DNA from: a virus
IMG/VR virus record: IMGVR_UViG_3300028666_000023
Coordinates: 89,104-153,103 of that record
Reading direction: 5' to 3' (one strand)
Length of the DNA: 64,000 bases
Each line of letters begins with the position of its first letter. Positions within the stretch are counted from its first letter, which is position 1. Below are positions 23,782-52,696 of this stretch, in pieces. The position numbers were made by a program, and so were the translations under genes. The notes below the pieces were generated by a model. That model saw nothing but the letters and a program-made list of their open reading frames with translations, did no database searches and was not told the origin of the DNA.

Positions 23782-24041
23782 GGCGCCGGAGCAGCGCGGC
23801 GCTCCGCGCGCGGCGCCTCAGGTTGCGCTTCCTCTGTGCACGCGACCTCGAGCCGCCATCCCTGACGCGCGCGCGGACCGTCGTCCTCAGGCACGTTGAC
23901 AGGCCACGCCGTAGCGATCGGCGAGTTGTAGGGAATCACGAGCACGCTCTGGGTGCCTCCCCACTGCTGGAACATGCAGATGCACGTCCCACCGCCGCAG
24001 GTGCACGCTCGGCTGTAGTTGGTGAGGGTGCCCGGGACCAT
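23739..24041 (-). CDS. hypothetical protein
   Basis: ORF coupled to the upstream gene. Confidence 0.45.
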   Translation of the reverse strand: MVPGTLTNYSRACTCGGGTCICMFQQWGGTQSVLVIPYNSPIATAWPVNVPEDDGPRARQGWRLEVACTEEAQPEAPRAERRAAPAPCIVGGGPMRRRWR

Positions 24042-24292
24042 CAGCGGCCGGCGGGAACAGACTTCGGAGCGCCGCCCTGGAGCTTCTTCAAGTAGGCGGA
24101 TGCGATGTCGTCGACCTCGGAGCGACCGGCCTTGCCGACAGCCTTCGCGGCGCCCGCGCCGGTGCTGCTGATGGACTTGCCGAAGCTACCGCTGCGCGTG
24201 AGCGCGGCCGCTGCATCGCCAATGCGATCGAACCAGCCCGCGTTCTTGATCTGCTCGAGCTCGTCTTTGAAGGCTTCAGCCATGACGTTCAT
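24041..24292 (-). CDS. small protein with AFxDEL leader (putative head-internal protein)
   Basis: MNVMAEAFKDELEQIKNAG matches the leader of the 46.4-49.4 kb proteins. Confidence 0.65.
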   Translation of the reverse strand: MNVMAEAFKDELEQIKNAGWFDRIGDAAAALTRSGSFGKSISSTGAGAAKAVGKAGRSEVDDIASAYLKKLQGGAPKSVPAGR

Positions 24293-41943: not shown

Positions 41944-42227
41944 TTGCGCACCCGGCGCCGGCCCTTCATGTTGCCGAGCGCGAGGAGGAACATCTTCGCG
42001 ACGAACTGGCAGTGCCGCTTGCCTTCTTTGCGGTCGTCGGTTTCCGCCAGGGTGAAGTACTGGACGCCGACACGGAAGAAGGTCTTGTACGTCACGCGAC
42101 GACCCCACTTGAAGGTCTCCACGTAGACGGCCCACGTCTTCTGTTTCTTCTGCACCTGCTTGGCCGCGCGCGTGGCACTCGCAAGCCGTTCGAGCTCATG
42201 TTCGATCGGCGATGTGACCTTCTTCAT
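41940..42227 (-). CDS. hypothetical basic protein
   Basis: Coupled to the sigma gene. Confidence 0.6.
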   Translation of the reverse strand: MKKVTSPIEHELERLASATRAAKQVQKKQKTWAVYVETFKWGRRVTYKTFFRVGVQYFTLAETDDRKEGKRHCQFVAKMFLLALGNMKGRRRVRK

Positions 42228-43051
42228 CAGTCTTCTTCTTCGTGGTCGTACCCCATGAACCTCTTCAGAGTGCCGAGCATCTGCGTCTTCATGTGGGAGA
42301 TCTGTTGATCGGTCTTCTTCATCTTCTTTGCGAGCAGGCCCGTCGATGTGATCTGGGGATGGTCGTTCGTTCCGAAGACGTGGTTGAAGAGCGTGTGCAT
42401 CTCGGGCTTCTGGGGGAAGAGATCGTGCAGCGACTTCGACGCCACAGCGATCTGCTCGTCCTCGAAGCTCGGGAAGTGGTCGTCCATCCCCTCGAGCGAG
42501 CTCGCCGGAACGTCACGACGTTGTGCCTTCAACACGGTGTCGATTCGCTTGGCAGAGATGTTCTGGAACTCTTGTTCCCCGCTCGACTGCAGATGTGACG
42601 CGATCTCCGTGCTCGTCGGCTCGCGCCCGTACTGCTCGGTGAGCTCCTCCTTCGCCACGTTGATGGGCGTGATGAGCGCAGCCTGGCCCGCGGGGATGTA
42701 GGCCATGTTCTGGTTCTTGAGGTTGTACCGCTGCGCCTTGCGGAGGCGGTAGTTCACGTGCGTGTTGAGAGACGCGCCCTTGTTCGGGTCGTACGTCTCG
42801 AGCGCGTTGATGAAGTGCTTCTGGAGCTCTCCCTTGAATGCGCTCTCCGGCGCCGCGTGCGGCGCGCGGTAGTGCCGCATGCGCATCTGCATGAGCGGCT
42901 CGTACGCTTTGAGCAGGGGCTCGAGGTGCTCGGGCTTGCGCGTCTTGTACCAGCGCTTCCAGAGATCGAGCTCCTGCTCCTTTCGGTCAGCCTTCGCGGC
43001 TTCCTTCGCTTGGAGGTGAACCTCCAACGGATTCGGTTTGCGCGCTGCCAT
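42227..43051 (-). CDS. phage-encoded RNA polymerase sigma-70 family factor (group 3-like)
   Basis: Region 2 ALETYDPNKGASLNTHVNYRLR; region 3 YGREPTSTEIASHL; degenerate region 4 HTH. Confidence 0.88.
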   Translation of the reverse strand: MAARKPNPLEVHLQAKEAAKADRKEQELDLWKRWYKTRKPEHLEPLLKAYEPLMQMRMRHYRAPHAAPESAFKGELQKHFINALETYDPNKGASLNTHVNYRLRKAQRYNLKNQNMAYIPAGQAALITPINVAKEELTEQYGREPTSTEIASHLQSSGEQEFQNISAKRIDTVLKAQRRDVPASSLEGMDDHFPSFEDEQIAVASKSLHDLFPQKPEMHTLFNHVFGTNDHPQITSTGLLAKKMKKTDQQISHMKTQMLGTLKRFMGYDHEEED

Positions 43052-43472
43052 CTTCGTTCCCTTCCAGTTTGAGATAGATCGAGTCGTGGATTTGGTGCTC
43101 GATACTAACTTTCTTGCCGAGTATCTGAAGAGTGTCCGCCAACGGCCCCGACTGCAGAAGGAAGCCGGAGATGCTCCCCGACAATGCGGACTTCTCAACC
43201 GCCTTCTGGAAAGCCTCCATGTGTGCGTGCTTCTGCAACTCCTCGAGCACCTCCGTCGCCCCCACACCGCGTGCGATCGCGAGCTTGAGGACCGTGCTCT
43301 GCGACAGGAGTCCACGCATAGCGAGCTTCTGGTACGGAGCGATGTCGAAGGGGAGCGGGCGCAGGATGGCGAGCTCCGTCGCCGCGAGCTCCTCGAGCTC
43401 CTTCTGTTGTTTGTTCCAGGTCGCGTAGTCCTTGGCGTTCTTCAAAGCCCAGCGAACGGTGTGCTTCTTCAT
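42987..43472 (-). CDS. hypothetical protein with faint family-A DNA polymerase-like motifs
   Basis: AATELAIL / IARGVGA / HQIHDSIYL. Confidence 0.5.
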   Translation of the reverse strand: MKKHTVRWALKNAKDYATWNKQQKELEELAATELAILRPLPFDIAPYQKLAMRGLLSQSTVLKLAIARGVGATEVLEELQKHAHMEAFQKAVEKSALSGSISGFLLQSGPLADTLQILGKKVSIEHQIHDSIYLKLEGNEDGSAQTESVGGSPPSEGSREG

Positions 43473-43795
43473 TGGTTGATCTTTGCAGCTACCAGATAGG
43501 ACCCGGGCCCTGTTGCCTTGATGCGGTACGTTCCGTCTTTGCCCTTGGTGCCCGTGATGAGCACCGTGTCTCCGGGGCCCAGACTCTGGTCGACCCCAAG
43601 CAAATCGAACTCACCCTCGCGGTTCGGACCGTCCAACATCTCCCACTCGACCGTGGGCTTGCCGATGACGATGTTCTCGATCTTGGCGAGCTCACGAGCG
43701 GTGCGCTTCCAGCGCTCGCGTTCGATCCAGCGCTTCCAGCGACGTTCTTCTTTCTCTTCGCGTCGCTGCTGTGCGGCGCGACGAGATGCTGCCAT
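43469..43795 (-). CDS. hypothetical protein
   Basis: Coupled on both sides. Confidence 0.6.
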   Translation of the reverse strand: MAASRRAAQQRREEKEERRWKRWIERERWKRTARELAKIENIVIGKPTVEWEMLDGPNREGEFDLLGVDQSLGPGDTVLITGTKGKDGTYRIKATGPGSYLVAAKINQ

Positions 43796-44214
43796 CAGAC
43801 GAAGCCGATGGTCTTCATGACCTTGTCGGTCAGCGTCTCGTCGGCGGCCGTCTTCTCTCGTCCACGCTGAAGCATCGGCGAGTGCGGGTGCCCTTCGCGC
43901 GCGTTGGCGAAGAACTCGGACATCTCTTTCTGCTCGGCGGGCGCGGTGGTCTTCGGGCTGTCGAAGAGGCGATCGATCATCTCGCCGCGGCCGTTGTGCG
44001 CCTCGCGTTCGACAGCGGTGCCGTGGACAGCCGCATCATCGTTCTTGCTGACTGGCGGCTTGTCTCCCCATTTCGCGTCGAGCGTGCCCGGCTTGCGCCC
44101 CTCGGGCGGAGGATAGACGTCGCCGCGGCCCTTGTTGCTCTGGTCCTCGTTGTTCTCGATGCGACCATCGTCCGAAGCCGTCTTCGCGCGGATCAAGTCC
44201 AGTGCCGTCATCAT
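43795..44214 (-). CDS. disordered putative head-internal protein (KTA sites)
   Basis: IRAKTAS...REKTAAD; ATG 7 nt after TAGAAT. Confidence 0.6.
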   Translation of the reverse strand: MMTALDLIRAKTASDDGRIENNEDQSNKGRGDVYPPPEGRKPGTLDAKWGDKPPVSKNDDAAVHGTAVEREAHNGRGEMIDRLFDSPKTTAPAEQKEMSEFFANAREGHPHSPMLQRGREKTAADETLTDKVMKTIGFV

Positions 44215-44224
44215 GCCTCCCATT

Positions 44225-44587
44225 CTAGCGCCTCCCGAGACCGGCACCAAGCGAACCGAGCAGCAGCTTCAACCGCCCGAGTTCTTCGTCAGCCTTGATG
44301 CGCCGGGCAACCTCGAGCTTCAGCGCTTGCTTCGTCACTTCGTGCTCGGCCTTTTCCTTGTGATAGTCGTCGCGCAGCACGGTCAGCACTTCACCCTGGA
44401 AGTCCTCCTCGCCGTAGATGCGGAAGCCGGCCTTCAGCTTCTTCTCGATCTTCTCCCACAGCTCCTCGTTCGCGTACTGCCCGTGCAGCTGACACTCGAC
44501 CTGGAAGGTGCCGTCCTCGAGCTGCCGCGAATGACTCGCCGAAAGAGCGAACGAGATGCTCGGAACCTTCTCTTCTGAATCAACCAA
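44225..44587 (-). CDS. hypothetical protein
   Basis: TTG start with GAGGAGG SD. Confidence 0.6.
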   Translation of the reverse strand: MVDSEEKVPSISFALSASHSRQLEDGTFQVECQLHGQYANEELWEKIEKKLKAGFRIYGEEDFQGEVLTVLRDDYHKEKAEHEVTKQALKLEVARRIKADEELGRLKLLLGSLGAGLGRR

Positions 44588-45143
44588 AGACCACCTCCTC
44601 GATGGAGATTTCCCCCACCACGATTCCAACTGCGCGCGAGACGCCCTCGAAGCCATGACCCTTTGAGGCGCACTCCTTCTGCGCGAATTCGAAGAACGCT
44701 TCGGCCGCGCGCTCGGCGAAGGTTTTCACGACGTCGGCGCGCTCGCTGAGCATGCCATCGTTGAAGAGCTCGAAGCAGAGAGCGAGATCGAGAGCCTTCT
44801 GCGCACGTTGCACGTGCCCCGTCTGCGCGTTGTCCGACCAACCCCTCAAGATCTGCTGCTCGGCAGTCTGCAGCGTGAGCATCTCATGCTCTTGGCGGAG
44901 GTCGGCGATCGTTTGTTTCAACGAGCGTTGTTGTGCTGGACGGCCGAGCACAGCGTTCGCCGTTGTAGCGACGGCGAGCGCCATGCGCACGCCGGTCTTG
45001 CGGACGATGAACTCCTCGGCGCTGCCGGTGTTGAGCCACTTCGTTGCGAACTCGCGGATGACACCGCTCGTTGTGTCAGAGTGCATACCGAAGTCGGCAT
45101 CATTGAGTAGCAAAAGAGAGAGCTTGCAGGTGAATGGACACAC
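44580..45143 (-). CDS. hypothetical protein
   Basis: GTG start after GGAATAAG (45160-45167) and GGAGG. Confidence 0.55.
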   Translation of the reverse strand: MCPFTCKLSLLLLNDADFGMHSDTTSGVIREFATKWLNTGSAEEFIVRKTGVRMALAVATTANAVLGRPAQQRSLKQTIADLRQEHEMLTLQTAEQQILRGWSDNAQTGHVQRAQKALDLALCFELFNDGMLSERADVVKTFAERAAEAFFEFAQKECASKGHGFEGVSRAVGIVVGEISIEEVVFG

Positions 45144-45160
45144 GGTTTCCTCCGTGGTTC

Positions 45161-45478
45161 TTATTCCTCGGAGGTCTTCCTGGTAGCCCAACCGACAAAC
45201 TGCACGTAGTCGTGGAAAGTACAACCGGTGCCAGGGCACACGTAGCTCGGTGAGAGCGTGCCGTCGGGCGAAACCGAATGGATCTTCCTGGAGATGCGGC
45301 ACGTGTGCCCGAGGGGGCACGTCGAGAAGGCCAAGTCTTCTCCGCAGACGCGCGCCCAGCGCTCGTCCCCGGTCTTGGCGAGGACCTCTTCATACGTCGG
45401 CGCGTAGTCCCACGTCTTCGGTGTCGGCAGCACCCCATGGTCGGGGATGCGCTGGTCGCCGCGCGTGAACTCGATCAC
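45161..45478 (-). CDS. DUF6527-like Zn-binding protein
   Basis: CPLGH...GTLSPSYVC...CTFHDYV. Confidence 0.55.
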   Translation of the reverse strand: MIEFTRGDQRIPDHGVLPTPKTWDYAPTYEEVLAKTGDERWARVCGEDLAFSTCPLGHTCRISRKIHSVSPDGTLSPSYVCPGTGCTFHDYVQFVGWATRKTSEE

Positions 45479-46425
45479 GTCAGGTCTTGCGGCGCGCGCC
45501 CACCGATGCTGCCCTTGAACGCACCGGCGATGCCCGAGCCGAAGTGCGGGCCCTTGGGCTTCGCAATCTGCGCGATCGACGGCCCCGGTCCAGAGAGCTT
45601 CGGTGCACCGACAGACTTCGCTGCCGAGGGTGCACCGCCGAGCGTCGGGCTCACGCCCATGATGCCGCCCGCGGCGCCCATCTTCTCACGCAGCGTCGCG
45701 ACGAACTTCGCCATCTCCTCGACGGGCATCGAGTACTTCGACTTCTTGAAGTCGCTCTGGTTGTACGTGACGTAGTCCGGCAGCATGTCGCCGTCCTTCT
45801 CCTTGGACTTCTTCGCCACGGGCGCAGGGTCGAACGCGAGATCGAGGTCGCTGCGCTTCTGGATGGGGCTCTGTAGGTCCGGAGCTGCGAACGAGGGGAT
45901 GTCGCTCGCCATCATGAAGTTCCCGCGCGTGGGCGCGCCGGCCGCTTGCTTGCGCTTCTGCACCACCGACTGGAGGTTCGGCGCAAGGAACCCGGGCGCG
46001 GAGCTCGCCTGCGAAGGGATGCTCGGGTTGAGGGGGTAGGAGTACTGGCTCGTCGTGAACGCGTGCTTCGCGATCGGCGCGACCTTGTCGATGAGCTTCT
46101 CGAGCCCGCGCTTGCCCGCGAGGTACGCCGGCGTGAGACCGGGAATCGGCACCCCCTGCATCGGGATGATCTCCGGGTTCTTGATGCCCACGGAGGCCAC
46201 GCTCTTCAGCGCACCGGCGATGCGCGGCGTGAACGTCTTGTCGGCCGCGCGATCGACCGCCGCCTGCGCGGGGCCCTGCAGCTTGCCGAACGCGTTCTCG
46301 ACTCCGTGCTGAAGACCCGCGAGCTCGTCGGGCGAACGCTTGCGCATCAGCAGCCGCGGCGTGTTGGGCACGTCAGTGGCGCCGAGGCGCACGAGCCGTT
46401 CGATGAGCGCGTCCTTCTCCATCAC
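45475..46425 (-). CDS. putative head-internal protein with multiple K-x-[AG] sites
   Basis: EKDA, AKHA, RKQA and EKMG separate low-complexity segments. Confidence 0.65.
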   Translation of the reverse strand: MMEKDALIERLVRLGATDVPNTPRLLMRKRSPDELAGLQHGVENAFGKLQGPAQAAVDRAADKTFTPRIAGALKSVASVGIKNPEIIPMQGVPIPGLTPAYLAGKRGLEKLIDKVAPIAKHAFTTSQYSYPLNPSIPSQASSAPGFLAPNLQSVVQKRKQAAGAPTRGNFMMASDIPSFAAPDLQSPIQKRSDLDLAFDPAPVAKKSKEKDGDMLPDYVTYNQSDFKKSKYSMPVEEMAKFVATLREKMGAAGGIMGVSPTLGGAPSAAKSVGAPKLSGPGPSIAQIAKPKGPHFGSGIAGAFKGSIGGRAPQDLT

Positions 46426-47054
46426 TTCTTCTTTTTCATGGCGGCGTCATGCTCGCCCTCGCGCTTGCCCACGTGATAGAGCGCCGCGCCGGAGGCGATG
46501 CCGCCCACGCCGCGCGCGATCTCGCGCGTGTCTCCATGCGCGACGCCCGACCCTGCCTCAATCGCCGGGCCGATGCGGTGCTTCAGAAAACCGTGCACGC
46601 CCTGAAGGCCATGCTCGAGTGCGCTCCGCGCCACATCTTTCGCATCCGCGCCCTTGCTCAAACCGGAGGACATCGGGGAGTCGGTCATGGCGCCGGGGGA
46701 CGGGGCGTACTCGCCGACGTGCTCCTGGTTCATGAACTTCTTGAGCTTGCCATACTCGGCCTTGCGATCGAGCTGCCGCGCGACGAGCGGGATGGCACCC
46801 ATTCCGATAGCGCCGCCGACCGCCCCCGCGAGCGCGCCGCGCCGCGTGGGGAGTGCGCCATGCTCGAGGGCGTTGCCGAGGAGCCTGGTCCCAGCGCCCG
46901 CGGCAGCACCGAGCGCGCCGTAGCGACCGACCTGCCCGAGCGTCGGCTTGCTCTGGTCGATCGCATCGAGCTTCTCGAGGGAGCGGTGGGCCTCCTCAGC
47001 GCTGACCGCGCCAAGCTTCTCGAGCTCGTCGAAGAACGCGTCGATCGGCAGCAT
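46422..47054 (-). CDS. putative head-internal protein, AFFDELEKLG leader, glycine-zipper helices
   Basis: Leader motif; GALGAAAGAG and GALAGAVGGAIG. Confidence 0.7.
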   Translation of the reverse strand: MLPIDAFFDELEKLGAVSAEEAHRSLEKLDAIDQSKPTLGQVGRYGALGAAAGAGTRLLGNALEHGALPTRRGALAGAVGGAIGMGAIPLVARQLDRKAEYGKLKKFMNQEHVGEYAPSPGAMTDSPMSSGLSKGADAKDVARSALEHGLQGVHGFLKHRIGPAIEAGSGVAHGDTREIARGVGGIASGAALYHVGKREGEHDAAMKKKK

Positions 47055-47617
47055 CAGTGGCCTCCGGCGAGACCGCCGAGCGCGGGGGCCGCGAGCACAC
47101 CGAGACCCGCGATCTCCGACAGCGGCTTGGCCGCGTGCGGCAGCACCTGACGCTTCTTCACGCCCTCGGAGCTGTAGTCGCCGTGGAGGCCCGCGCGCAG
47201 ATGCGCCTGCGCCTCGTCGAGGCTCGGGGCCGCGAGGATGCCGAGCCCGGCGAGCTCCGCCTTGTGCGCGCCCGCGCCTTGCGCGAGCGGCGCGAGGGAC
47301 TTCATGAGCCCACCGACGCCGGCCTCCTTGATCGCCTCAGCGAAGGCTGCCTTGTCGAGCATGTCGGGGTACTTCTGTTTGATCTTCGCGCGCACGGCGG
47401 CGAGGTCGGCCGAGTCGTGGTGCATCTTCGCGAAGCCGAGCGCGGAGCGCGCGTGCTGGCGATCGGGGATGGGGTACGCCTCCTCACCCGTGTTCGACTT
47501 CTTCGCCTTCACCGCGAAGTCCTTGCCGGGGAGCTTGTCGCGCGCGCTCTCGGTGAGCTCGCCCGCGATCTTGGAGAGCTCGTCGCGGCAGGACTGGATG
47601 CTGGTCAAATCGAACAT
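47054..47617 (-). CDS. putative head-internal protein with DUF6582-like domain
   Basis: CRDELSKIAG leader; LTESARDKLPGKDFA...YPIPDRQHARSAL...IKQKYP. Confidence 0.7.
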   Translation of the reverse strand: MFDLTSIQSCRDELSKIAGELTESARDKLPGKDFAVKAKKSNTGEEAYPIPDRQHARSALGFAKMHHDSADLAAVRAKIKQKYPDMLDKAAFAEAIKEAGVGGLMKSLAPLAQGAGAHKAELAGLGILAAPSLDEAQAHLRAGLHGDYSSEGVKKRQVLPHAAKPLSEIAGLGVLAAPALGGLAGGH

Positions 47618-47624
47618 GACTTCC

Positions 47625-48863
47625 TCACCTGAAGAACTTGCCGACACGTGCGAGCATACCAGGAGCCTTGGCCGCGACCGAGTGTTCTGCGGATTGCAGT
47701 GCTCCGCCGACGGCGCCGCCGAGTGAGGGGGCCTTCTTCATCAAGTTGAAAGGCGCCGCGGTCCCCATGGACTGAACGGTGTGCGCGGTAGTTCCAGACG
47801 CCGCGAGCGCAGGTCGAGCAGCGGGCAGCGCTGCACGTTGGGGGACAGCCGTTCGAACGTCGTCTACGCCACCCCCGCCGAGATGTTGTGCCGGTGGTGC
47901 CGTGGTCGGCGCGGCCTTCTGGATGTTCATCTGCGGGTTGAACACCTCCTTGCGGAGAGCTCCGACGTTCGCGTTCTGGCCGGGGTCGGCGCCGAACCGG
48001 CTGTCGCCCTTCGGTGCGTACGTGTGCAGCGAATCCAGCGCGTGGTTCGCCTGCCCTTCCGTGTGCGGCAAGAAGTCGAGCACCTTCGGACCTTGGGGGG
48101 AGTTCACGACGTTCCCCCAGTTGGTGCCGAGACTCCCTGAGGAGTTTCGGATCTTGGTGGTGTCCATCATGTGGTGGCCCTGCGCCTCCATCGGATTGAC
48201 CACCGTCTCGTTGACCTTGTTGACCGCGCCCATGTACTGGTCGCGAGGGTTGCTGTAGACCGCGCGCCCGTTGGCCTCGGCCTTCTGGCCGCGCAGGTCG
48301 GAGATGCCGGGCACGTACTCGTGGAAGGACGTCGAGCGTTGTAGTCCCCCTGCACCATGTGTCTCGTGACCGTACATCGCAGGCACCATGCTCTTCGCCT
48401 CGGGCGAGAGAGAGCGCGCTTGGTCGGTCATCTGCTGTTTGTGCTCGAGGAGCTTCGGCGTGAACTCCCCCTGAGACACGGGGCTGTCGGGTTTGTACAA
48501 CTTGCGCGCGACGTAGCCACTCTGGTTCACCTCACCCGTCGAGGGCACTGCCTTGCGTCCCATCATCAGGTCGACGCCGGCTTCCGCTCCACCAGGAGAG
48601 ATGTCCTTCAGCTGACGCGGCTTGAGTCCGAGGTCGCCGTAGCCCTTGGCGATCTGGTCGGCTCCTGCTTGGTTGCCCGCTGCATTCGCCGCCTGCCACT
48701 CCTTCACCGCGCGCGTCGCTGCGATCTTCGACCCAGGCGCCATCTTGATGGTCGCCATGCGCGGCGCGAGCGTCGTCAGCGCGTTGTTCGGACGGAGCTC
48801 CCCGGGTGTGGCGATCTTCGCGAGCTCGCTCTCGAAGGCGCTCTTGATGCTGTCGAGGTTCAT
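47625..48863 (-). CDS. protein-kinase-like domain protein with AFESELAKIA leader
   Basis: PGGAEAGV (Gly loop), VARKLY, VPAMYG, FHEYVPG, HMMD...NWGNVV, PKVLDF in kinase order. Confidence 0.65.
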   Translation of the reverse strand: MNLDSIKSAFESELAKIATPGELRPNNALTTLAPRMATIKMAPGSKIAATRAVKEWQAANAAGNQAGADQIAKGYGDLGLKPRQLKDISPGGAEAGVDLMMGRKAVPSTGEVNQSGYVARKLYKPDSPVSQGEFTPKLLEHKQQMTDQARSLSPEAKSMVPAMYGHETHGAGGLQRSTSFHEYVPGISDLRGQKAEANGRAVYSNPRDQYMGAVNKVNETVVNPMEAQGHHMMDTTKIRNSSGSLGTNWGNVVNSPQGPKVLDFLPHTEGQANHALDSLHTYAPKGDSRFGADPGQNANVGALRKEVFNPQMNIQKAAPTTAPPAQHLGGGGVDDVRTAVPQRAALPAARPALAASGTTAHTVQSMGTAAPFNLMKKAPSLGGAVGGALQSAEHSVAAKAPGMLARVGKFFR

Positions 48864-49375
48864 GCGTGCCCGCTCGGGTGGTTCATGGCACCGATGTCGC
48901 TCGAGTGTTGCCCGAGACCGGTGACCGTCGTTGCGTTCTCTCGCTGGTCGTATCGATCGACGGTGTTCACGTCGTCCAGGCTCGGGACGTCACCCTTCTT
49001 GCGTGGCTTTTTTGCTTCCGCAAACCCAGGTGTCTCACCGCCAGGGATGGGCCCGGGTCCCTCCGCGTAGACGCTGCCCTGCAGGGAACCATACTTCTGC
49101 TCGAGGGGAATCATCTCCCCCCGCGTGGGCCCGTCCCCCGAATGCTTCTTCGCTTTGGCGGCGCCGGGGTCGTCCACGCTGCCCGCCGCGGTGTCCTGGG
49201 GGTTTCCCTGAGAATCCGCCCCCTTGTAGAGCTCGCCGCGCTTGTCCTTGTCCAACAGCTTGTCCACTGAAATGGGACGGCGCCCCTCCCGCGACTTCGT
49301 AATATCCATGTGGCTCTCCGCGAAGGCGATCTTCGAAAGCTCGTCGTAGAACGCGGAGAGAACTTTGCCGTCCAC
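48860..49375 (-). CDS. putative head-internal protein, AFYDELSKIA leader
   Basis: GTG 6 nt after TACACT; internal repeat AKAKKHSGDGP / AKKPRKKGDVP. Confidence 0.7.
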   Translation of the reverse strand: MDGKVLSAFYDELSKIAFAESHMDITKSREGRRPISVDKLLDKDKRGELYKGADSQGNPQDTAAGSVDDPGAAKAKKHSGDGPTRGEMIPLEQKYGSLQGSVYAEGPGPIPGGETPGFAEAKKPRKKGDVPSLDDVNTVDRYDQRENATTVTGLGQHSSDIGAMNHPSGHA

Positions 49376-49418
49376 GACTGGAGTGTACCGCGGGCACGGA
49401 ACGTGCGGAAGAGCGGAC

Positions 49419-49622
49419 ATGCTCATCGTCGGACTCCTCGCCCTCATCATCTGCGTCGTCGGTCTGATCTTCTATCTCGCGTTCAATGCGATGTCGCGCG
49501 CGGCGTGGGTAGAAGTCTTCCGCATCATGTTCGCGATGGGGCTGCTCGCCTTTCTCATCGGCTCAGGGATGCAGAGCTGTTCCGTCGGAACAACCGGCGC
49601 GACCACCACAATCCACCACTAG
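49419..49622 (+). CDS. small two-TM membrane protein
   Basis: MLIVGLLALIICVVGLIFYLAF...IMFAMGLLAFLIG; stop overlaps the convergent gene. Confidence 0.65.
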   Translation: MLIVGLLALIICVVGLIFYLAFNAMSRAAWVEVFRIMFAMGLLAFLIGSGMQSCSVGTTGATTTIHH

Positions 49623-52600
49623 CCGAGAACGGCTCGAGCGGTCTGCAGCTGCGCGACAAATTGAAGAACAGCGCGCTGCTTGCGCTCGCGTGTGTCGCCG
49701 CGTTGCGCCGCCGTGCTCCCGCGTTGGATGCCCGTGATGTTCGTGATGTCCGGGTTCACGAGCCCGAAGAGGTCGTTGTAGGGACCGAACGCGCGCGAGT
49801 GGAATCCCTCGATGCCCTTCACGACGTTGATGCCGTCGGCGTCGAGTGCGAGATCGCTGGAACCGAACATGTCGTACATGCTGGCGATGGGGCGCCACGT
49901 GTAGTTCCGGATGAACTCGTCCACGTCGAAGCCGTTCGCGCGGATGTACGAGTACGTCTGAACTAGGAATTCAACCGCGTCTTGGATCGACGAGCCGTTG
50001 TCGAGCGCGAGGAGTCCGGCCTCGAGCCCGCGCGGGTCGTCGGCGTCGACCGCCTGTTGTACTTTCTGCAGCGCCTGCTCCGCGGTGTCGTACGAGACGC
50101 CGACTGACCCGCCGTTGGTGCCGGAGACCTGCTGCTGGTCGGTGATGGAGCCGGTGAAGAAGAACTCCTGGTACGCCTTGCCGATGAGCGAGGGGTGCCA
50201 GATGTCGCCGTACCAACCCGGGCGGATGTACTCCTCCGCGGGCAGGTCCACCTTCTGTTTCGTGTAGCGCGGCACGGACTCGGTGACGCGGAACGCGCGG
50301 AACTGCACCACGGTGGTGGGGTTGCCGAGGAGCGTCACGACGTCCGGTCCGTACGAAGAGGCGGGCAGGGAGAGACCGACGGGGACGTTGATCTTCGACG
50401 CCGTCGTCCCCGCGATCGGCGGACCCTGATAGTACGGCAGCTTCTGCCCGGTGGTGACGTCCTGCGCCTTGTACGCCGAGGTCGTCTCCTGCACCGCGGT
50501 GATGGTGCCGAGGTTCGGTCCGAGGCTGCCGATGGTCGGCGGGTTGATCGCCGAGACGACGGTGACGCGCGAGGCATCGGTGGACGCGCGCTTCTGCACT
50601 GTCTGGTCCGGGCGGATGACGCCGAGGAATTCAACGCTCTCTTCGTACTGCCGCGCGTAGCTGCAGTTGAGGTTCGTCGAGCCACCGCTCTGGCTGACGG
50701 AGTGCTCGACCTCGGTGAAGTTGGCGAGGAAGTGCGTGCCCATCAGGGCGTGCATCTCTTCGGGAGCGACGTCACCCGTTGCGCCGGCGGCCTGGTTGAT
50801 CAACTGCTGGCGAAGCGCGAGCGCCTCCGCGTTGACGTACTTGTCGATGACGAGGCCGGGGAAGCCGGGGGCGATGTACGGATTGAACTTTCCCGTGACC
50901 TGCATCGTGCGCGCGGCGAAGCGGTACTTGAAGTAGAGGAAGTTGCAGGAGCGCTGCGCCAAGCCGATCTTGGGCGGCCCGCCACCGTCGACTGAGCCCG
51001 AACGTGCGGCGAAGATGTTGAGCTCCCCCATCTTCTCGAAGACGGGCAGGATGCCGGTGAAGAGCTCGTGGTCGAGGAGGTCGTTCGACAGGATGGCCTG
51101 GAGCTCACGGCTCCCGCTCTTCAGCGTGAAGCCTTTCGGCGCGAAGTAGAACTGGTCGAAGAGCTCGTCCTCGCCGAAGAACTCGTCGTTCGTCTTGAGG
51201 AGCAACCGTGTGGGCTCTGTGAGGAACGCGCGCGAGTACTGCATGTCCCGGTAGTTCTCGGGGAACATGACGTTGCAGCGTGGCGGCGCGGAGAACCAGA
51301 CGTCGGGGCGGAAGATCTGCGAGTTGAGCCGCGCCGGCTGCGTCACCTTCGCCGAGGACACGACGATGAAGCCAGCAGCGAGCTGGAGCTGTGCGGCTGC
51401 GTTGTTGAGCGGCGTGGTGATAGACGCGATGATCGACGCCGACGCACCCGGCTGCCACTTCTTCGCGGCGGCCTGCGCCTGATCGAGCGAGGTCGACGCC
51501 GAGGCGTAGTACGACTTCGCCTGCTGCACCTGCGGCTGCGTGATGCGCGTGGCGGTGTCCCGGCAGGTCGCGCGCATGTTCGAGATGATCGTCTGCAGCG
51601 TCGCCGCGCCGAGCAAGCTCACCCCCGCTTGATCGGGCTGCGTGTTGAGGAGCTTCTGCGCGTTGTCGATCGACTGCAGGAGGCCGTCCGCCGTCGTTGC
51701 GATGAACGCGTTCTGTGGATCGGAGCGCACGCTCTTGCGCGTCACGCCGGACGGAGTGTTCCCCGTGCCCGGCACGTACCGCGGGCAGCACTGTGCGTAG
51801 GTCTCGTGGAAGATGATGCCCATCAGCGCGTTGATGGACTGCCGGATGGAGACCTGCTGCCCGAGGCCGCCGAGCGTGCGTCCGAGGAGGGAGTCGTAGC
51901 CGGCGGCGAGGAGGCGGAATGCAGTGGGGTCAGCCTCGTACGCGGTGATCATCTGCGTAATGTGCAGCTTGAGCTCCGCGATGGAGAAGAAGATGTTCTC
52001 GCCGGCGAACTGCTTGCCCTCGAAGTAGCTCCCGCCGATCGCCTCGAGCACATGCACGATGCCGCCGAGCAGGCCCTTGAGGTTCGGGTATTGCACCGAG
52101 GGGGTCTGGAAGATGCGCAAAATCGCCGAGCCCTCGTCCTCGAGGAAGTCGGTGAAGAGGTTCGTCGAGCCGCCGGAGAACATCGCCTTGAGGCCCGGCC
52201 CGAAGAGGTCGGTGTTGTTCCACTGGTAGGCGTAGTCCCAGTAGTTCGACCAGTCCATGCACTGCAGGACGAGCGAGCGTTGTGACGCGCTCTTCGTCCA
52301 CTGGAAGCCAACCATCTCGCCGCCGAAGAGGAGCTTGTAGTGGTCGTTCTCGATGTCCTGCAGGACGTTCTTGTCCCCAACATCGCCCGACGAACCGTTC
52401 ACGATCGTAGTCGAGCCCTGCTGACCCTGCTGGTAGTCAGACGGCGACTGGTTCGTGTTGCTGTTCGTGGCCGTTTTCGTGACTGGAAACGGAGAGGCGG
52501 CTTCGGCGAAGTCGTAGAAGTAGAGATGGACGAGCGTGCGCGGCAGGAGCTTCGTACCCTCGGGCAGCGGCGGGAGCTGGATGGAGCACGCCGCTGGCGC

Positions 52601-52696
52601 GTTCGGCGTGACCTGCACGGTCGCGGCGATGACGGGGACCTCCACGCCCTCGAGAAAGAGTCGAAGGCGCAGCCTCTGTGCGTACCCACCAGCCAC
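49619..52696 (-). CDS. putative baseplate hub / tail-associated protein
   Basis: 1025 aa; N-terminal LRLFLEGVEVPV...LLFGGEMVG...LVLQCMD and later FNPYIAPGFPG resemble gp27/gp44-type hubs; downstream of the tape measure gene. Confidence 0.65.
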   Translation of the reverse strand: MAGGYAQRLRLRLFLEGVEVPVIAATVQVTPNAPAACSIQLPPLPEGTKLLPRTLVHLYFYDFAEAASPFPVTKTATNSNTNQSPSDYQQGQQGSTTIVNGSSGDVGDKNVLQDIENDHYKLLFGGEMVGFQWTKSASQRSLVLQCMDWSNYWDYAYQWNNTDLFGPGLKAMFSGGSTNLFTDFLEDEGSAILRIFQTPSVQYPNLKGLLGGIVHVLEAIGGSYFEGKQFAGENIFFSIAELKLHITQMITAYEADPTAFRLLAAGYDSLLGRTLGGLGQQVSIRQSINALMGIIFHETYAQCCPRYVPGTGNTPSGVTRKSVRSDPQNAFIATTADGLLQSIDNAQKLLNTQPDQAGVSLLGAATLQTIISNMRATCRDTATRITQPQVQQAKSYYASASTSLDQAQAAAKKWQPGASASIIASITTPLNNAAAQLQLAAGFIVVSSAKVTQPARLNSQIFRPDVWFSAPPRCNVMFPENYRDMQYSRAFLTEPTRLLLKTNDEFFGEDELFDQFYFAPKGFTLKSGSRELQAILSNDLLDHELFTGILPVFEKMGELNIFAARSGSVDGGGPPKIGLAQRSCNFLYFKYRFAARTMQVTGKFNPYIAPGFPGLVIDKYVNAEALALRQQLINQAAGATGDVAPEEMHALMGTHFLANFTEVEHSVSQSGGSTNLNCSYARQYEESVEFLGVIRPDQTVQKRASTDASRVTVVSAINPPTIGSLGPNLGTITAVQETTSAYKAQDVTTGQKLPYYQGPPIAGTTASKINVPVGLSLPASSYGPDVVTLLGNPTTVVQFRAFRVTESVPRYTKQKVDLPAEEYIRPGWYGDIWHPSLIGKAYQEFFFTGSITDQQQVSGTNGGSVGVSYDTAEQALQKVQQAVDADDPRGLEAGLLALDNGSSIQDAVEFLVQTYSYIRANGFDVDEFIRNYTWRPIASMYDMFGSSDLALDADGINVVKGIEGFHSRAFGPYNDLFGLVNPDITNITGIQRGSTAAQRGDTRERKQRAVLQFVAQLQTARAVLG

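Follow-up and report, generated by a model that had tools for sequence, protein, structure and literature searches.

A family of predicted minimal protein-kinase-like enzymes with a putative head-targeting leader in Arash-like phages

Kinase-PolyVal (PF18762) is a kinase domain without C-lobe that occurs in polyvalent proteins and for which virion delivery was proposed in 2017, according to the part of the source available to us (Iyer et al. 2017, PMC5512222). The T7 kinases (T7K), represented by T7 gp0.7 and JSS1_004, are described in the accessible sections of another report as carrying out promiscuous anti-defence phosphorylation (PMC13645617). With respect to packaging, excerpts of the T4 literature describe gp21 as processing IPI-III and Alt, with an N-terminal propeptide as the capsid-targeting sequence (PMC9026906), and the ejection proteins of SPN3US are a further known case in the accessible text of their report (PMC10052503). 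A demonstration of a virion-packaged bacteriophage protein kinase was not found in the literature searched, the coverage of which was incomplete. The concept of a virion-delivered truncated kinase has already been predicted for Kinase-PolyVal; the protein described here belongs to a separate family.

The window, a 64,000-nt stretch of viral DNA, contains the kinase-like gene P0001 at 47625..48863 on the minus strand, which is also the strand of all features within this gene given below. Its start codon overlaps the stop of the upstream gene (ATGA), and the 3' end of the 412-aa ORF runs into the next gene. The genome carrying it (G000) is a 193,844-bp phage with terminase, HK97-fold capsid protein, one-piece beta-beta' RNA polymerase and sigma factor, and Salmonella phage Arash has matches to 16 of the 265 genes called in it, those for RNAP, portal, capsid, protease, terminase, gp6, gp8 and gp10 among them. 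The beta and beta' parts form one 2162-aa ORF (G000:C1:7048-13536, minus, outside the window), and the homologues in Arash are the separate gp206 and gp216, both abundant in particles. The sole match among genome contigs was a 12-kb contig in a Deltaproteobacteria MAG; it may be a mis-binned phage contig and was set aside as a pointer to the host.

A list of kinase motifs in canonical order had been proposed for this gene in an earlier note, and all of them were found in P0001 in that order: ISPGGAEAGVDL at residues 88-99, YVARKLY at 117-123, VPAMYG at 160-165, SFHEYVPG at 179-186, GHHMMD at 229-234, a 13-residue insert, NWGNVV at 248-253 and PKVLDFLP at 259-266. Searches for relatives retrieved 53 proteins at E<=1e-3, and in a set of 1.84 billion proteins the family has 85 representatives, of which 79 fall at E<=1e-10. 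These relatives and representatives, together with the near-invariant catalytic columns, indicate that the motif set is more than the product of chance. P0001 had no sequence match in Pfam, PHROGs, NCBIfam or PDB sequences, its relatives likewise had no kinase-family match in the sequence libraries, and the weakest matches among the 85 representatives gave no link to a named kinase family. The kinase gene was not found in cultured phages by tblastn, and a search of the Arash ORFs with the family HMM gave no match (best E 1.9). By sequence, minimal PKL enzymes of the P0001 type appear to form a new family.

The fold was examined on an AlphaFold2 model of residues 46-314, built from a 53-row alignment (pLDDT 95.0, pTM 0.91). 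Foldseek against the PDB returned kinases for 49 of 49 among the matches listed (best E 3.6e-5), with TM-scores to the solved kinases among those listed of only 0.32-0.44, and matches in a viral structure library were mostly annotated protein kinases. With VIA-align over 48,161 chains, 50 of 50 among the matches listed were PKL proteins; ULK4 ranked first (Z 11.1, 155 residues at rmsd 3.6 A), followed by BRAF (Z 10.5), Rio1 and Rio2 (10.1) and the small-molecule kinases YihE (8.7) and APH (8.6); most of these alignments end at model residue 220-240. The Atlas's own structure model of the protein had listed matches that were all Pkinase clusters. Its nearest named feature clusters, which at scores of 0.89-0.90 serve as leads only, include T7-kinase (13% of members) and Kinase-PolyVal (84%). 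The structural check suggested by the earlier note therefore came out as anticipated, with kinases returned by three structure searches, and the PKL fold is well supported as a prediction. The order of the catalytic residues and their secondary-structure positions in the model suggest that they may converge on one site.

Within P0001, a conserved N-terminal helical hairpin at about residues 51-77 (48633..48719; R51 96/103, E55 96/104) precedes the predicted minimal PKL kinase domain at residues 83-310 (47934..48617), which consists of N-lobe, hinge, catalytic loop with insert, and DFLP. Only about 45 domain residues, forming two short helices, follow DFLP in P0001, and over 69 sequences the domain ends a median of 49 aa after DFLP; the model accordingly lacks most of the C-lobe. 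The remainder is an Ala/Gly/Pro-rich tail (47625..47933) that ends in a basic, probably amphipathic segment, APGMLARVGKFFR. The leader and the Pro/Ala tail noticed earlier were both recovered, as SAFESELAKIA at residues 8-18 and as 102 residues with 23 Ala, 12 Gly and 9 Pro.

Conservation was counted in a 116-sequence alignment over the rows with a residue at the column, one of 117 proteins having been dropped because it gave no domain hit. Glu94 of the GGxE glycine loop (48582..48584) is invariant (108/108), and the beta3 lysine Lys121 (48501..48503) is kept in 108/111. In the catalytic loop, D234-[insert]-N248-x-G-N251 (48111..48164), D234 is found in 111/112, N248 in 107/112 and N251 in 110/111 sequences, and the variable insert gives a D234-to-N251 spacing of 6-41 across the family. 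In canonical kinases this spacing is 5. The reading of GHHMMD and NWGNVV as the catalytic D...N pair thus held for the two conserved residues, D234 and N251, but the HRD-type His is missing, H231 being kept in only 8/108 sequences; the family in this alignment has neither the HRD His/Arg nor the catalytic-loop Lys. Similarly, the predicted metal-binding motif at D263-P266 (48066..48077), which had been called DFG-like, contains the expected invariant Asp (D263 111/111) but reads DFLP and not DFG (F264 103/111, P266 105/111). Helix alphaC has no invariant acid (E133 65/108, D147 79/110). Its middle is occupied by Lys142 (48438..48440; K in 106 and R in 3 of 110), which by helix register probably sits at the position of the alphaC Glu, and E94 may replace this missing Glu. 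P0001 was rejected as a canonical Hanks-type kinase, given the absent alphaC Glu (K142 106/110), the absent HRD, the short C-lobe and the lack of a Pkinase HMM match.

The missing alphaC Glu and the long variable insert in the catalytic loop would also suit a pseudokinase or ATP-binding decoy without transfer activity. We regard this as very improbable, since K121, D234, N251 and D263 are kept at 97-100% over 111-112 sequences.

The described system closest in concept is Kinase-PolyVal. As far as the available part of the 2017 paper goes, both have lost most of the C-lobe with the catalytic residues intact, and both contain a catalytic-loop insert and a Glu before strand 2, E94 in P0001 preceding strand 95-101. 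Fusions to InPase and other cargo, cassette shuffling and proposed virion delivery are shared as well. In contrast to the Gln described in the last N-lobe strand of Kinase-PolyVal, P0001 has S179, H181 (100/110; Gln in 3) and E182, and where the text of that paper appears to place an insert between a conserved His and the Asp, P0001 has no conserved His and an insert between D234 and N248. The N-terminal helical hairpin, the alphaC Lys and the K-x-A boundary with a leader are additional features of the P0001 family, whose members are mostly proteins of 300-500 aa from an Arash-like phage clade. The Kinase-PolyVal HMM matched 0 of 53 members at E<=10 and 0 of 39 further or divergent members at E<=0.01; it also found none in G000 and matched 0 of 28 related records. 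Because P0001 shows neither the Gln nor the His feature and gave no match to the HMM, it was not filed as Kinase-PolyVal.

The parallel drawn earlier with T7 gp0.7 stands as a functional precedent, but its motifs are not those of P0001 and profile comparison showed no similarity: the hhalign probability was 0.04-0.35% and the best hmmsearch E 1.1, with a T7K profile that is shallow (Neff 1.7). Judging from the accessible description of T7K and JSS1_004, these are also phage PKL kinases with a short C-lobe and a divergent, Pro-containing DFG-like motif, which reads DPV compared with DFLP in P0001, and DMHSGN takes the place of D-[6-41]-NxGN. P0001 has a low-complexity tail in place of the shut-off domain, and it lies in a late block with a predicted cleavable leader, whereas T7K is an early gene. 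Membership in the T7K family was not supported, as the DPV motif and the C-terminal shut-off domain are absent. The RIO kinases (1zp9, 1tqi) are similar in their small C-lobe and in structure (Z 10.1), with the Rio1 alignment covering the N-terminal helix, and a Glu in the Gly loop is also found in RIO and Bud32 kinases. P0001 differs from RIO kinases in showing no sequence match, in its catalytic loop, in having no alphaC Glu and in its phage cargo context.

The absence of HRD His/Arg and of the catalytic-loop Lys, the near-invariant N248 and the alphaC Lys may also point to an injected PKL cargo that transfers AMP or acts on a non-protein substrate, be it a small molecule, a signalling nucleotide or the end of a nucleic acid. 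YihE and APH among the structural matches are in line with such chemistry, as are the fusions to InPase and to LigD phosphoesterase plus ligase in two relatives. In these two, P0224 and P0221, the kinase lies behind a LigD 3'-phosphoesterase and an ATP-dependent ligase, with InPase in addition in P0221, an arrangement that recalls end-healing repair enzymes. On the other hand, the best structural matches are protein kinases, the catalytic Asp is retained, and the large helical inserts of the C-lobe, which build the pockets for small molecules, are missing from P0001. P0224 has K-I-A directly before the kinase, so its ligase may be merely adjacent cargo. We therefore consider a non-protein substrate unlikely and favour a protein kinase.

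We then turn to the features that bear on where such a protein kinase would act. The first 18 residues of P0001 (48810..48863) form a leader of the type (A)F-x-[DE]-E-L-x-K-I-A that ends in a first K-I-A (16-18), and they are predicted to be a head-targeting propeptide with a cut site. This leader pattern occurs within the first 80 aa in 40 of the 53 kinase relatives. A leader PSSM built without P0001 gave 5 raw hits among 2536 ORFs, four of which were the starts of the P0001 gene and three neighbours, and the fifth a head-block gene. A second K-I-A at residues 46-48 (48720..48728), not named in the earlier note, directly precedes the folded domain and is the predicted release site. K-x-[AGS] was found at one fixed offset before the kinase domain in 82 of 86 sequences, which are mutually related and hence not independent counts, compared with at most 5 at any other offset from 3 to 12. 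The count was anchored on the R-x-x-x-E helix of the domain, and 30 of 116 sequences were left out because the anchor was not located. The K-x-A boundary is also present in internal kinase copies behind InPase, SNF2 helicase, ligase, HNH and DUF5661 domains, with the exception of fusion P0221, where it reads T-E-A. A third, C-terminal cut site at K316-A-A was rejected, as K-x-A follows the domain in only 5 of 69 sequences and is not conserved.

The related pattern K[ILTV]A was counted across gene classes. In 17 head-block genes it was counted 42 times where 9.0 were expected, with a p-value that is optimistic because the pattern was picked after looking at the data. Replication genes have 7 for 7.5 expected, and tail-fibre and baseplate genes 2 for 4.8 expected. 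Enrichment was also seen in cultured relatives, namely in gp19 (5 observed, 0.6 expected) and gp7 (9, 2.1) of phage G and in gp220 (6, 0.8) and gp225 (4, 0.4) of Arash. It was not seen in the Arash virion protein gp217 (0, 0.7), RNAP beta (2, 2.8) or the phage G capsid protein gp27 (0, 0.6), which indicates that the motif is not required for packaging. The simplest reading, by analogy with the T4 capsid-targeting sequence, is that a prohead protease cuts at K-x-A and that the helix upstream serves for targeting. The literature searched, where coverage was incomplete, gave neither a measured cleavage rule of the K-x-A type nor a paper on capsid cleavage in phage G.

A candidate protease is encoded in the same genome. 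A 586-aa protein of the head block has matches in phage G (gp19) and in Arash (gp222), and its structure model retrieved T4 gp21 first with probability 1.00, at an E of 1.8e-3 that lies above the 1e-3 line but far ahead of the next fold at 0.11. Phage G gp19 is annotated as a head maturation protease in the available portion of its report (PMC12484599). The 586-aa protein is thus predicted to be a T4-gp21-type head protease, and there were 1502 hits for it compared with 53 for the kinase. The head block that contains the gp21-fold protease, scaffold-like genes and the capsid protein lies outside the window at G000:C1:177173-191928. In several relatives the prohead protease carries an intein (P0056, P0057, P0100, P0104 and others), and in P0125 it is fused to InPase. 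Compared with the T4 system as presented in the excerpts available, both have a short N-terminal propeptide common to unrelated, poorly conserved proteins and encode a protease of the gp21 fold. The T4 propeptide ends at Glu, whereas the predicted site here is K-x-[AGS]; the tag here also separates modules inside fusions.

The kinase gene lies in a late block between two conserved flanks, in the window and in the close relatives examined. These are, upstream, a gene for a 1025-aa homologue of the Arash virion protein gp8 (49619..52696) and, downstream, a sigma factor gene homologous to Arash gp10 (42227..43051); both flanks and the cassette genes between them are on the minus strand. Directly upstream of P0001 is a leader gene with SAFYDELSKIA (48860..49375), the N-terminal module of which is fused to the kinase in 4 relatives. 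Downstream are a leader gene with SCRDELSKIA (47054..47617), a leader gene with AFFDELEKLG that is fused to the kinase in 2 relatives (46422..47054), and a cassette gene whose modules are fused to the kinase in 3 relatives (45475..46422). The kinase fuses in relatives with each of its four neighbours, and with InPase as well. A variable module set fills the slot between gp8 and sigma in 12 of 13 fetched regions with usable gene calls; a leader-pattern ORF was present in 9 of these 12 and a module shared with the cassette of the window in 11 of 12. Left out of this comparison were G003, which had no sigma match, and L125, in which genes were lost to the GC filter. The kinase itself was present in 3 of 28 related records, two of which had been known to carry it beforehand; of the 14 that are near-complete, 1 has it. 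These comparisons of gene content indicate that the kinase is an accessory module in a variable cassette of leader-tagged genes. A sigma-70 promoter scan of positions 42000-50500 found 0 and was uninformative.

Leader and K-x-A might instead be protease sites, or relics of them, that activate or clear a late kinase staying in the infected cell. Virion residence in Arash does not need the motif, and K[ILTV]A enrichment in the kinase cassette was not significant (7 observed against 3.6 expected, p 0.075), both in keeping with such a role. However, four unrelated proteins of neighbouring genes begin with this leader and a head-block gene contains it, the accessible T4 text places the action of prohead proteases inside proheads (PMC9026906), and a virion-helicase homologue is the fusion partner in one relative. 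A kinase confined to the infected cell is for these reasons decidedly unlikely, and packaging of the kinase is preferred. In the relative concerned, P0175, the kinase is fused to an intein-bearing SNF2-type helicase that is 38% identical to Arash gp217 (E 5e-81). Arash gp217 gave 1148 spectra in purified particles, compared with 1333 for the capsid protein, in Table 2 of a report consulted in part (PMC10585845). The virion list there holds 116 of 252 proteins, and its authors allowed for carry-over (PMC10585845, same portion). The helicase-kinase fusion P0175 (L123:6120-10061, G023) fills the cassette slot.

A packaged and processed kinase might also act on phage proteins such as scaffold, core, cargo or packaged RNAP, and regulate head maturation or early transcription. 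The position between a gp8-like gene and a sigma factor in the late block would fit this, as would the packaging by Arash of RNAP, sigma and a helicase homologous to the P0175 fusion partner. However, 13 of 14 near-complete relatives do without the kinase, which would be surprising if it served assembly, and ATP is unlikely to be available in the mature phage head. Phage targets are accordingly quite unlikely, and we prefer targets in the host cell.

Because the domain starts right after a motif typical of head-assembly proteins, the kinase probably enters the head, is released there by cleavage and is injected. The interpretation in the earlier note is thus supported in part: head targeting and packaging gain indirect support from the motif enrichment in head genes of G000 and two cultured relatives, the gp21-type fold of the protease, the K-x-A boundary and the helicase fusion. 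Sequences and models show the fold, the conserved catalytic set, this boundary, the position among late genes and the shuffling with other tagged modules. From these we infer packaging, injection, protein substrates and an anti-defence role, and give an even chance to the reading of P0001 as a head-packaged, protease-released and injected protein kinase acting on host or defence proteins. Expression would be late. The acidic amphipathic leader helix, which resembles segments of head-block proteins, would direct packaging into the prohead, where the gp21-type protease would cut after Ala48 of K46-I-A48 to give a mature protein starting near residue 49. After ejection with the DNA, the kinase would phosphorylate Ser/Thr, perhaps Tyr, in an ATP-dependent manner before phage gene expression. 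Catalysis would use K121, with D234 as the base, N251 and D263 as Mg ligands, and E94 in place of the alphaC Glu that K142 replaces. Specificity for proteins may be broad, since the substrate-selecting C-lobe is missing and the site is open. As most relatives are without the kinase gene, its benefit would be conditional and of a counter-defence type.

A fuller version, which we hold as possible but doubtful, is that of a new virion-borne kinase family with a rewired active site, made as a tagged pro-form, released at Lys-x-Ala in the head and phosphorylating host proteins broadly before phage expression. As part of that tentative version, the Gly-loop Glu and the alphaC Lys would replace the Lys-Glu bridge and Asn would replace the catalytic-loop Lys. 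Also as part of it, the cassette would be a plug-in cargo site of Arash/phage-G-type phages, a large and mostly uncultured clade, and the kinase one of its exchangeable payloads.

A kinase carried in the head, if this is true, would act from the first second of infection, including against systems that sense or block early transcription. By contrast, T7K can disarm many defences but needs prior expression. The head-borne kinase would then be the first of a phage for which delivery in the particle is shown. With P0001 the family has a member that is small, well folded and stands alone, and whose mature N-terminus is precisely predicted, so that virion delivery can be tested on it directly. Phage G and Arash, both cultured relatives, allow a check of the K-x-A rule. 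For the evolution of kinases, the rearranged active site is of interest as well.

Several further observations were made in the genome and its relatives. A recurring uncharacterised module, MP[AEKQ]W[IM]H.RA.H.LAKNP, lies in the slot of L116, L117, L119, L121, L122 and L124 and also occurs in L003, L009 and L011; it is absent from the cassette of the window. A stand-alone polyvalent-type InPase (PF18823) is encoded among the tail genes (G000:C1:45064-45549, minus), and in relatives InPase moves into the cassette and fuses to leader-bearing modules. A MoxR-type AAA ATPase lies beside a DUF2201 metallopeptidase/VWA gene (G000:C1:15109-17738, plus). Between the gp8 homologue and the cassette, the window contains a 67-aa hydrophobic ORF at 49419-49622 on the plus strand. 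An 83-aa ORF at 24041-24292 on the minus strand, downstream of a 1066-aa gene and away from the cassette, has a leader-like start, AEAFKDELEQIKNA.
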